Below are positions 667 through 2,021 of a DNA stretch of 64,000 nt, piece after piece; positions within the stretch are counted from its first letter, which is position 1, and each line of letters starts with the position of its first letter. The DNA is from Escherichia phage Antha. The stretch lies in sequence record PP925826.1; one strand, written 5' to 3'. Made by a program: the position numbers and the translations under genes. The notes beneath the pieces were generated by a model that saw only the letters and a program-made list of their open reading frames with translations, ran no database searches and had not been told where the DNA came from.

Positions 667-1221
667 ATGGGTTTTGATGATATGTTATTATATGAGGAGG
701 CTTGTGTGAAAGAAGCTATGGCTTTACCAGTTTTATCTATTGATATTACAACAGTAGACACTTTTTCAGATTGTGAAACGTGTGGATCGTATTCATCTAT
801 TGTACATGAAGTCAGTGGGGATTTAGGCACTTACGAAGATGGAGATTATGCAAGTTGTTTAGGTGATAATCGAGATGGTGAAGTGGCGAATGTTGCAAAC
901 TGGATTTCTTCTAAGTTAAAAGAAAGAAATCGTCCGTTCCCTAATCTTCTTACACCAGAAGCTATGCTTAAAGCTGAACAAGAGATGTATGACTATGGTT
1001 ATAAAGTAGATTATGACTATAATGATCCTACTTATAAAAAATTGAGTGACAAGTATTGGGAACTAGCTAACGCTTATGATAAATACTATTCTACAGAAAA
1101 CATTGTTAAATTGTTTTTAGATTTTGGAGTAGAAATTAATTGGGATTTCGAAGAGGAAGAGCGTTACGATGCATCTTCTTGGGATGATGATTACGAAGAG
1201 GATATTGAATGCGAAGAGTAA
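667..1221 (+). CDS. acidic hypothetical protein
   Basis: ORF with GGAGG 7 nt upstream of ATG at 667; D/E-rich C-terminus. Confidence 0.5.
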   Translation: MGFDDMLLYEEACVKEAMALPVLSIDITTVDTFSDCETCGSYSSIVHEVSGDLGTYEDGDYASCLGDNRDGEVANVANWISSKLKERNRPFPNLLTPEAMLKAEQEMYDYGYKVDYDYNDPTYKKLSDKYWELANAYDKYYSTENIVKLFLDFGVEINWDFEEEERYDASSWDDDYEEDIECEE

Positions 1222-2021
1222 TTTTTGTTAGTGGAGCTGGTTTAAGTGCAGACAGTGGGATTCGAACATTCCGAACAGACACAGATAGTGGTCGTGCCTT
1301 ATGGGAAGAATGGGATTTAGAAGAGATCTGCGATATTGGAGCTTTCCAAGCAGGTTATCGTGTGAGAACATCACCAGATCTTCCAGTGGTTGGTGGTGTA
1401 GACGAAAACGGTATGGATTTGTATGCCAAAACACACGAATTTTATAACAAAAGACGTGTTGAGCTTAAAGATGTACAACCTAATGCTGCACATATTCAAA
1501 TAGCAAAGTGGTTTAAGGAATATCCTAACCAAGTAGTAAACTTGACAACAAACGTCGATGATCTACTAGAGCGAGCAGGTGTAGACAGAGATTCGGTTAT
1601 TCACGTGCACGGATATCTTCCTGAAATAGTTTACCGTATGCATCCTGGGGATTACAAAACACTGGTAGATATTGGTTACAACAGTATAAACATAGATGAT
1701 TACAACTGGGTGAAGCCTAATGTTGTATTTTTTGGTGAGGCTGCACCTTTGTATGCAGATATGGCTCACTTGTTTGATACTTTGACCATGCAAGATTTGG
1801 TTGTAGTAGTAGGATGTTCAAACCAAGTTATCAATTTTAATTGGGAATTATTCCCTGCACTTAATATGGGTACAAAAATGATCGTTGTTAACCCAGGAAT
1901 TAATTACGAAGAAACTCTTCTTTACGAAGATAGAGGAGTCTTTGTTTATAGAGAAAAGGCAGCAGATGCTTTTAGCAACCCTGCTTTCATAAAAATGATA
2001 GAAGATCATTTGACTAAGTAA
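1209..2021 (+). CDS. Sir2-like (sirtuin-fold) protein lacking zinc-ribbon cysteines
   Basis: Motifs GAGLSADSGIRTFR, TTNVDDLLERAG, HVHG, KPNVVFFGEA, VVVGCSNQV match sirtuin catalytic core; no CxxC pairs. Confidence 0.7.
   Translation: MRRVIFVSGAGLSADSGIRTFRTDTDSGRALWEEWDLEEICDIGAFQAGYRVRTSPDLPVVGGVDENGMDLYAKTHEFYNKRRVELKDVQPNAAHIQIAKWFKEYPNQVVNLTTNVDDLLERAGVDRDSVIHVHGYLPEIVYRMHPGDYKTLVDIGYNSINIDDYNWVKPNVVFFGEAAPLYADMAHLFDTLTMQDLVVVVGCSNQVINFNWELFPALNMGTKMIVVNPGINYEETLLYEDRGVFVYREKAADAFSNPAFIKMIEDHLTK

Follow-up and report, generated by a model that had tools for sequence, protein, structure and literature searches.

The window analyzed here, a 64,000-nucleotide stretch of Escherichia phage Antha (PP925826.1), encodes a 270-residue sirtuin at positions 1209 to 2021 on the plus strand. 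This protein falls in a clade specific to phages, whose ancestry lies in ordinary bacterial class III (CobB/SIRT5-like) sirtuins and in which the four zinc ligands have disappeared. Judged by its conserved residues, the active site is catalytically intact, and the phage sirtuin is probably an active NAD-consuming enzyme. Following the prediction of Iyer et al. 2022 for this clade and on the basis of gene context in sister lineages, we tentatively assign it a function in RNA-repair-linked, Tpt1/KptA-like ADP-ribosyl transfer.

The first 4 kb of the window are 97 to 99% identical to phi92 and its relatives (phage 92CQ, phi92 and EmilieFrey/Bas61), which are members of Justusliebigvirus within the Stephanstirmvirinae, the phi92-type phages of E. 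coli. The sirtuin open reading frame (ORF) is the counterpart of PHI92_gene_038 (phi92 gp038) and Bas61_0186, and the GenBank and RefSeq labels of these counterparts include "Sir2 (NAD-dependent deacetylase)", "sirtuin family protein" and "cobB". Databases and the literature thus contained the gene and its family (PHROG 2162) before this analysis, along with a prediction of what the clade does. No discussion of the absence of zinc ligands in the phage sirtuin clade was found in the literature, and their loss is not mentioned in the clade description of Iyer et al. 2022.

Assignment of the protein to the sirtuins is far above chance level. By profile search, it matched Pfam SIR2 (PF02146) with 79.4 bits against a cut-off of 24 (E=4e-22), PHROG search returned PHROG 2162 "Sir2" with E=4e-104, and E. 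coli CobB was the top sequence match in the PDB (E=8e-18). An initial annotation made from the DNA letters had proposed a Sir2-like protein on the strength of five core motifs and had listed assignment to another Rossmann family among the results that would overturn it. All five motifs were found in the ORF, and both profile and structure searches returned the sirtuin fold again, with CobB as the top match. Orthology with CobB was ruled out, with all NCBIfam scores far under their cut-offs: the top score among the CobB equivalogs (NF040867, NF001755 and others) was 104.6 bits against a cut-off of 243, and the remaining CobB models scored 44 to 84 bits against cut-offs of 221 to 395. Identity between CobB and the phage sirtuin is about 25%.

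The residues expected of a working sirtuin are conserved throughout the family. The NAD loop motif GAGLSADSGIRTFR occupies residues 9 to 22 (G9 to R22) and is followed by the class III YxxR motif (Y79/R82/R83), TTNVDDL at 113 to 119 with N115 and D117, the catalytic H134 with G135, KPNVVFFGE at 169 to 177 with FGE at 175 to 177, and VVVGCS at 199 to 204 with G202 and S204. Across 121 sequences, S13, S16, F21/R22, C41, Y79/R82/R83, N115/D117, H134/G135, K169-P-N-V, F174/F175/E177 and G202/S204 are invariant. The class III anion-pocket motif, F78-Y79-N-K-R82-R83, is likewise invariant and aligns with Y92/R95 of CobB, while V116 aligns with CobB I131; Y92, R95 and I131 are the positions named in engineered acyl-selectivity variants of CobB. 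C41 probably corresponds to CobB A76, an equivalence that differs between two HMMER alignments. Values of dN ranged from 0.23 to 0.49. The dN/dS ratio was about 0.12 in the two of eight comparisons for which the NG86 method gave a dS, both near saturation (2.6 to 2.8), which places the gene under purifying selection. Since the active site appears intact, with all of its motifs kept, consumption of NAD+ by the protein, an activity that the initial annotation had also considered, is rated likely.

In contrast with the remainder of the protein, which has the profile matches, fold, histidine and N/D pair of a sirtuin, the Cys4 zinc site is absent. The 270 residues contain only two cysteines, C41 and C203, and no CxxC. 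In agreement with the initial annotation, which had noted the lack of paired CxxC motifs, none was found in any of the 120 listed homologues. A profile search over 1.8 billion cluster representatives showed that the best 18 or so clusters (at 50% identity) are zinc-less, whereas farther relatives carry two CxxC motifs about 20 residues apart. Alignment with these zinc-bearing relatives indicated that the first zinc knuckle has been replaced by a longer hairpin and that the second has been deleted.

The initial annotation had described the whole zinc-binding module as missing. This holds for the ligands but not for the surrounding structure. An AF2 model built from 121 sequences (pLDDT 91, pTM 0.88) contained a three-stranded sheet at residues 135 to 143, 151 to 154 and 167 to 172, with a pLDDT of 94 to 97 over residues 131 to 170. 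The small beta-sheet module is thus predicted to be kept in a remodelled form, and the part that has been lost is the four metal ligands. A Foldseek search with the model placed CobB (1s5p) first (TM 0.72/0.85), followed by Sir2Af1 and SIRT5, with E values of about 1e-17 to 1e-13 and TM scores of 0.7 to 0.85. The closest zinc-bearing relatives are chromosomal "SIR2 family protein deacylases" of Helicobacter, Malacoplasma and Verrucomicrobiota. These resemble the phage sirtuin in overall length and in the E-[VI]-C-[ND]-[IYL] sequence around C41, and differ from it in keeping CxxC...CxxC and in being bacterial housekeeping-type genes on megabase contigs. Because these nearest zinc-bearing relatives are ordinary chromosomal deacylases, the phage clade derives from canonical class III-like sirtuins, with a secondary loss of the ligands. 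Whatever its substrate, the phage protein is a natural instance of canonical sirtuin folding in the absence of zinc.

By tblastn, the sirtuin was detected in 982 of 50,697 phage records, or about 2% of sequenced phage genomes. The carriers are phi92-like, Phapecoctavirus, T5-like, rV5-like and Mydovirus phages, together with Vibrio and Erwinia jumbo phages. A motif-based scan of 185,579 bacterial and archaeal species, each represented by a single genome, yielded one distant match with 26% identity, although this approach may overlook divergent members. The clade is essentially confined to virulent phages. T5-, rV5- and phi92-like phages are frequent in therapy collections. The clade corresponds to that described by Iyer, Burroughs, Anantharaman and Aravind in 2022, which included proteins of Escherichia phages V5 and SP15, Proteus phage Mydo and Serratia phage BF (PMC9503650); the phi92-like protein shares PHROG 2162 and full-length identities of 48 to 60% with the rV5-like, Mydo and T5-like proteins. 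Three GenBank records, MG065639 (A150), MG065650 (B15) and MG065666 (A12a), are deposited as "Campylobacter phage" with C. jejuni as the host. They either share about 98% identity with phi92-like phages of E. coli or closely resemble rV5-like/Phapecoctavirus coliphage proteins, and the host assignment looks doubtful.

For the gene context of the clade, the ORFs of 55 IMG/VR loci were clustered and GenBank records were added. No neighbouring gene was common to all sirtuin lineages among the 55 loci, and three contexts were distinguished. At the T5-like loci (29 loci), an anaerobic ribonucleotide reductase gene (NrdD, as named in the GenBank annotation of a T5-like relative) lies upstream of the sirtuin, and HAD_SAK_2 ("HAD domain in Swiss Army Knife RNA repair proteins", E=8e-18) lies 160 nucleotides downstream in 27 loci. 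At the Mydo-/rV5-like loci (12 loci), the sirtuin stands in a series comprising Metallophos, RNA_lig_T4_1, cREC_REC, a P-loop kinase, the sirtuin, a DNA ligase and a MazG-like protein. At the phi92-like and Phapecoctavirus loci, only orphan neighbours were found. An RNA-end repair neighbourhood is therefore present in the Mydo-, rV5- and T5-like lineages and absent at the Antha locus. These contexts were re-derived independently and agree with those underlying the proposal of Iyer et al. 2022 that a "distinct clade of sirtuins" is KptA/Tpt1-like and removes 2'-phosphates from RNA (PMC9503650). In the phi92-type genome, the repair cluster of cREC, phosphoesterase, Rnl, PNK, DNA ligase and MazG-like genes is still complete but stands about 30 kb away from the sirtuin, which alone has been relocated from it; this genome also carries a tRNA array and a Prs+Nampt pair of the NARP1 type (described in 10.1101/2024.02.11.579819). 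In EmilieFrey, this cluster lies at 131.7 to 137.3 kb (L006:18771-24297), beyond the part of the genome that corresponds to the window, and is syntenic with that of the Mydo-/rV5-like phages. On a 279-kb jumbo-phage contig, the sirtuin is followed by a gene for a nucleoside 2-deoxyribosyltransferase-like protein (Nuc_deoxyri_tr2, E=1e-33; L062:10713-11195). Eleven distant cREC loci contained no homologues of Sir2, Rnl or PNK; in one of them, cREC lies beside Prs/Nampt.

A role in RNA repair is suggested by the convergence of two unrelated RNA-end-processing contexts on a single sirtuin clade, and by the phage set of Rnl, cREC, kinase and sirtuin, which mirrors the activities of yeast Trl1 (ligase/kinase/cyclic phosphodiesterase) together with Tpt1. 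In addition, both steps of the Tpt1 reaction would parallel both steps of sirtuin catalysis. In the Tpt1 reaction, the RNA phosphate attacks C1'' of NAD+, and a transesterification through the ribose O2'' follows (PMC6097658). As expected of sirtuins in general, the phage protein should bind NAD+, expel nicotinamide and move ADP-ribose onto an oxygen nucleophile, after which His134 would activate the ribose 2'-OH for a second, cyclizing step. In the proposed mechanism, the nucleophile would be a phosphate on damaged or re-ligated RNA, with the result that a 2'-phosphate would be removed in the course of phage tRNA repair. The phage cREC, macro and Prs/Nampt-like (NARP1-type) genes could rebuild NAD+ afterwards. 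Tpt1/KptA enzymes, which are NAD+ dependent, transfer and then cyclize an ADP-ribosyl group and are accompanied by ligase, kinase and cyclic-phosphodiesterase enzymes of healing and sealing, are proposed here as functional analogues; the likeness is one of function only, as Tpt1/KptA has the fold of the ADP-ribosyltransferase (ART) superfamily and the sirtuin is a Rossmann protein.

If RNA is the substrate, sirtuin chemistry would extend past proteins, and a missing step of phage tRNA repair against anticodon-nuclease defences would have been identified. We also consider, with greater reservation, a stronger form of this proposal, in which a nucleic-acid phosphate would, for the first time in any sirtuin, be the physiological acceptor, and the zinc-ligand-free phage proteins would serve as Tpt1 analogues that remove 2'-phosphates from repaired tRNA within an NAD+-neutral loop. 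Such a loop would draw on cREC, a TARG1/Poa1p-like macro phosphatase and Prs/Nampt, and would lead from NAD+ through ADP-ribose (ADPR) cyclic phosphate (ADPR>p), ADPR-1-phosphate (ADPR-1P) and ADPR to NAD+ again. In that case, the disappearance of the zinc ribbon would reflect the abandonment of peptide substrates.

Several observations weigh against a function in RNA repair. In the phi92-type phage itself, the repair cluster is about 30 kb away from the sirtuin gene, a difference from the neighbourhood on which the prediction of Iyer et al. was based, and the immediate neighbours are orphans. The sirtuin family is acidic, with a median isoelectric point (pI) of 4.9 (range 4.6 to 6.05), an uncommon property in a protein that has to hold RNA. 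The T5-like phage Bas28, a complete genome of 115 kb that carries the sirtuin, has no homologue of the Rnl1-type ligase, kinase, cREC or phosphoesterase, nor of the MazG-like, Prs or Nampt proteins. Without a ligase and kinase set, there is no obvious source of a 2'-phosphate junction in this phage. Gene order in the early regions of phages is weaker evidence of function than the order of bacterial operons. Literature searches on phage, T5 and phi92 sirtuins turned up no experimental work on proteins of this clade. Finally, the acyl-lysine pocket of CobB is kept (Y79/R82 for Y92/R95, V116 for I131, H134, and probably C41 for A76), an arrangement that a deacylase fits equally well.

The main rival is a protein lysine deacylase of the CobB/SIRT5 type that would reprogram the infected cell by acting on host or phage proteins, a possibility that we regard as real but doubtful. 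The enzyme could remove acetyl groups or, to judge from the YxxR pocket, succinyl- or malonyl-type groups, and the O-acyl-ADP-ribose formed could be hydrolysed by a macro protein, either that of the phage or YmdB of the host. By sequence as well as by structure, the protein is closest to deacylases, namely CobB, SIRT5 and chromosomal sirtuins such as those of Helicobacter. The phage sirtuin shares with CobB (1S5P, 6RXJ) and SIRT5 the GAGxS...SGIxxFR loop, FYxxRR, T(Q/T)NxD, HG, FGE and GxS; the catalytic histidine, the N/D pair, the FGE loop and the class III Y79-x-x-R82 are invariant, and the pocket residues match Y92, R95 and I131 of CobB. The macro protein of the window is of the TARG1/OARD1 type, that is, similar to O-acetyl-ADP-ribose deacetylases, and the acidic pI of the sirtuin is compatible with a protein substrate. 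However, the zinc module is reportedly needed for canonical deacetylation (PMC12700824), and the phage protein has lost its ligands together with one of the knuckles. Further differences from CobB and SIRT5 include the acidic pI, a variable insert of 26 residues at positions 47 to 72, and the segment that follows GxS in the peptide cleft, where a family-specific VINFNWELFP takes the place of a VYPAA-type segment. The scores against the CobB models of NCBIfam are far under the cut-off (105 against 243 bits at best), no acyltransferase or target is linked to the gene, and a deacylase would leave the repeated location of the sirtuin among RNA-repair genes unexplained. If the protein is a deacylase, lytic phages would be shown to rewrite the acylome of their host.

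The least supported option is the model of the initial annotation, in which the sirtuin would be an NADase or a protein ART with the macro and NADAR proteins as erasers; we consider it improbable. The NAD+-cleaving machinery of the sirtuin is intact, and Pfam searches confirmed that the window has genes for both macro and NADAR proteins, as that annotation had assumed. The macro gene (47611 to 48327, plus strand; PHROG 335 "phosphatase") is about 45 kb from the sirtuin, however, and the NADAR gene (27037 to 27588, minus strand) about 25 kb. Transcription in the window runs on the plus strand to about 2.4 kb, on the minus strand to about 31.8 kb and then on the plus strand again, and both genes lie in blocks other than that of the sirtuin, which argues against linked erasers. 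Co-variation of the three genes, suggested as a check on the same model, was not borne out. Homologues of the macro protein were found by tblastn in 2908 phage records (T4-like, Felix O1-like and Pseudomonas phages among others) and of NADAR in 718, mostly in Staphylococcus, Listeria and Enterococcus phages among the matches listed; these censuses and that of the sirtuin (982 records) differ in size and, among the matches listed, in host spectrum. Both families are widespread in phages without the sirtuin, and Bas28 has the sirtuin with no homologue of the macro, NADAR, PRTase_3 or HAD proteins of the window. Iyer et al. likewise note no adjoining macro gene for the clade (PMC9503650). The rule that zinc-less sirtuins are NADases or ARTs derives from the SIR2_2/defence branch (ThsA, FAM118), in which the whole beta module is missing, the sheet has seven strands and NADase activity is triggered by oligomerization (PMC12700824). 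Defence sirtuins (ThsA, DSR1/2, SIR2-HerA and SPARSA; SIR2_2) lack the zinc module and cleave NAD+, but they form a separate branch, outside which the phage protein falls as a canonical PF02146 sirtuin. Identity with a defence-type NADase was ruled out on this assignment to Pfam SIR2 rather than SIR2_2 and on the PADLOC result, a sole, marginal match to PDC-S65 (E=0.0067 over 36 residues). A comparable case, also with a sirtuin fold and with a macro protein as partner, is SirTM, the dedicated ADP-ribosylating sirtuin of Staphylococcus and Streptococcus. It keeps its zinc, has glutamine in place of the catalytic histidine (a QG-R triad) and is encoded in an operon with macro, GcvH-L and LplA2 (PMC8120803). 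All of these traits are missing from the phage sirtuin, in which H134-G135 is invariant, the zinc ligands are gone and no macro gene adjoins, and a SirTM identity was therefore ruled out. A homologue of NADAR in Proteus phage Mydo, 45% identical to that of the window, shares the strand of the sirtuin, from which it is separated by about 6 kb in the downstream direction (L003:13644-14165), and speaks for the eraser model; it is the only case of sirtuin/NADAR proximity seen. A module for NAD+ salvage or rebuilding is present in all three lineages inspected (Prs+Nampt in phi92-like phages and Mydo, NadR+PnuC in T5-like phages), which suggests that NAD+ is a managed resource, yet a lytic phage that drains NAD+ while encoding enzymes that rebuild it is hard to rationalize. 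Equally unlikely in our estimate is an action on small molecules in place of a macromolecule, either within the NAD+/ADPR economy of the phage or in counter-defence; the sirtuin might, for example, cleave or ADP-ribosylate an immune signal or metabolite derived from nucleotides. The presence in the same genome of macro, NADAR, cREC, Prs/Nampt and a DprA-like protein (PHROG 768, possibly SLOG-related) is consistent with such a role, as are the position of cREC directly beside a NARP1-like pair in another phage and the 2-deoxyribosyltransferase-like gene behind one jumbo-phage sirtuin. This evidence is circumstantial, no linkage to ADPR genes is conserved across lineages, and canonical sirtuins are not known for such substrates.

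In Antha, the sirtuin gene and the gene of an orphan acidic protein rich in cysteines seem to form one expression unit. The upstream ORF (652 to 1221, plus strand; PHROG 9509) encodes 189 residues from a TTG at 652 or 184 residues from an ATG at 667. Its end overlaps the start of the sirtuin gene by 13 nucleotides, and a Shine-Dalgarno-like AAGAGGA (1196 to 1202, plus strand) lies within its 3' end, 6 nucleotides ahead of the sirtuin ATG. The protein has a pI of 4.05, an acidic tail and invariant cysteines at C13, C36xxC39, C64 and C182, and its homologues form only five protein clusters with 47 to 98% identity. A structure search with its model (pLDDT 83) returned no significant fold match and so gave no functional clue. 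The name that GenBank gives it, "putative aminoacyl-tRNA synthetase", corresponds at best to a weak, sub-threshold Pfam match to PheRS_B1 (E=0.023), which we do not consider credible. The idea that these cysteines provide a zinc module in trans was dropped because the partner gene, with its five clusters, is absent from the compared Mydo, rV5-like and T5-like loci, where the sirtuins are equally zinc-less.

A sigma-70 promoter-like site on the plus strand (584 to 613; TTGACA-18-TATAAT with an extended -10 TG), identified by its 12/12 match to the consensus only, lies at the far end of the preceding ORF, which ends at 612. A hairpin with a terminator-like score on both strands (629 to 649) is found between the preceding ORF and the upstream ORF, and since it directly follows the promoter-like site, a transcript would start about 10 nucleotides before the terminator-like stem. 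Another terminator-like hairpin (2029 to 2046, plus strand) begins 8 nucleotides past the sirtuin stop codon. It is followed by a small ORF of 85 residues (2065 to 2322, plus strand; PHROG 15991), the final gene of the plus-strand block, and by a strong terminator-like hairpin with a 13-bp stem (2390 to 2419, plus strand) that closes this block, which converges with the minus-strand block. The nearest neighbours of the sirtuin belong to PHROGs 8514, 9509 and 15991, each without an assigned function.

The macro gene is the last of three overlapping genes at 46094 to 48327 on the plus strand, which encode a HAD hydrolase, a ComF-like PRTase_3 protein (E=1e-41) and the macro protein, the latter with an N-terminal extension of about 85 residues. 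This trio looks like an operon for the processing of nucleotides or ADPR. Comparison of the macro protein with the PDB indicated a TARG1/OARD1-like domain with a weak match to Poa1p. Macro proteins associated with NARP1 in phages are ADPR-1''-phosphate phosphatases that defeat aRES defence (preprint 10.64898/2026.01.28.702374), and this demonstrated activity gives NARP1-linked macro proteins a role independent of phage sirtuins. The macro gene of the window is not adjacent to NARP1-like genes.

Other arrangements of NAD+- and ADPR-related genes were observed along with these. In Bas28 (L007/L008), the sirtuin is accompanied by an NAD+-dependent DNA ligase split into A and B parts and by a NadR-like/PnuC-like pair of the NARP3 type. 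On IMG/VR contig 3300012346_000402 (L084:1200-5212), cREC lies directly upstream of a Prs-like and Nampt-like pair of the NARP1 type, an order which suggests that cREC, instead of working on RNA ends, may feed ADPR-cyclic-phosphate into NAD+ reconstitution. In the window, two paralogous AAA+ ATPases with 47% identity over 254 residues are encoded at 28653 to 29780 on the minus strand and at 44544 to 45704 on the plus strand. The former adjoins a CapR/T5orf172 protein and NADAR, and the latter lies just upstream of the HAD/PRTase_3/macro trio. The two loci could be parallel modules beside genes for ADP-ribose processing.

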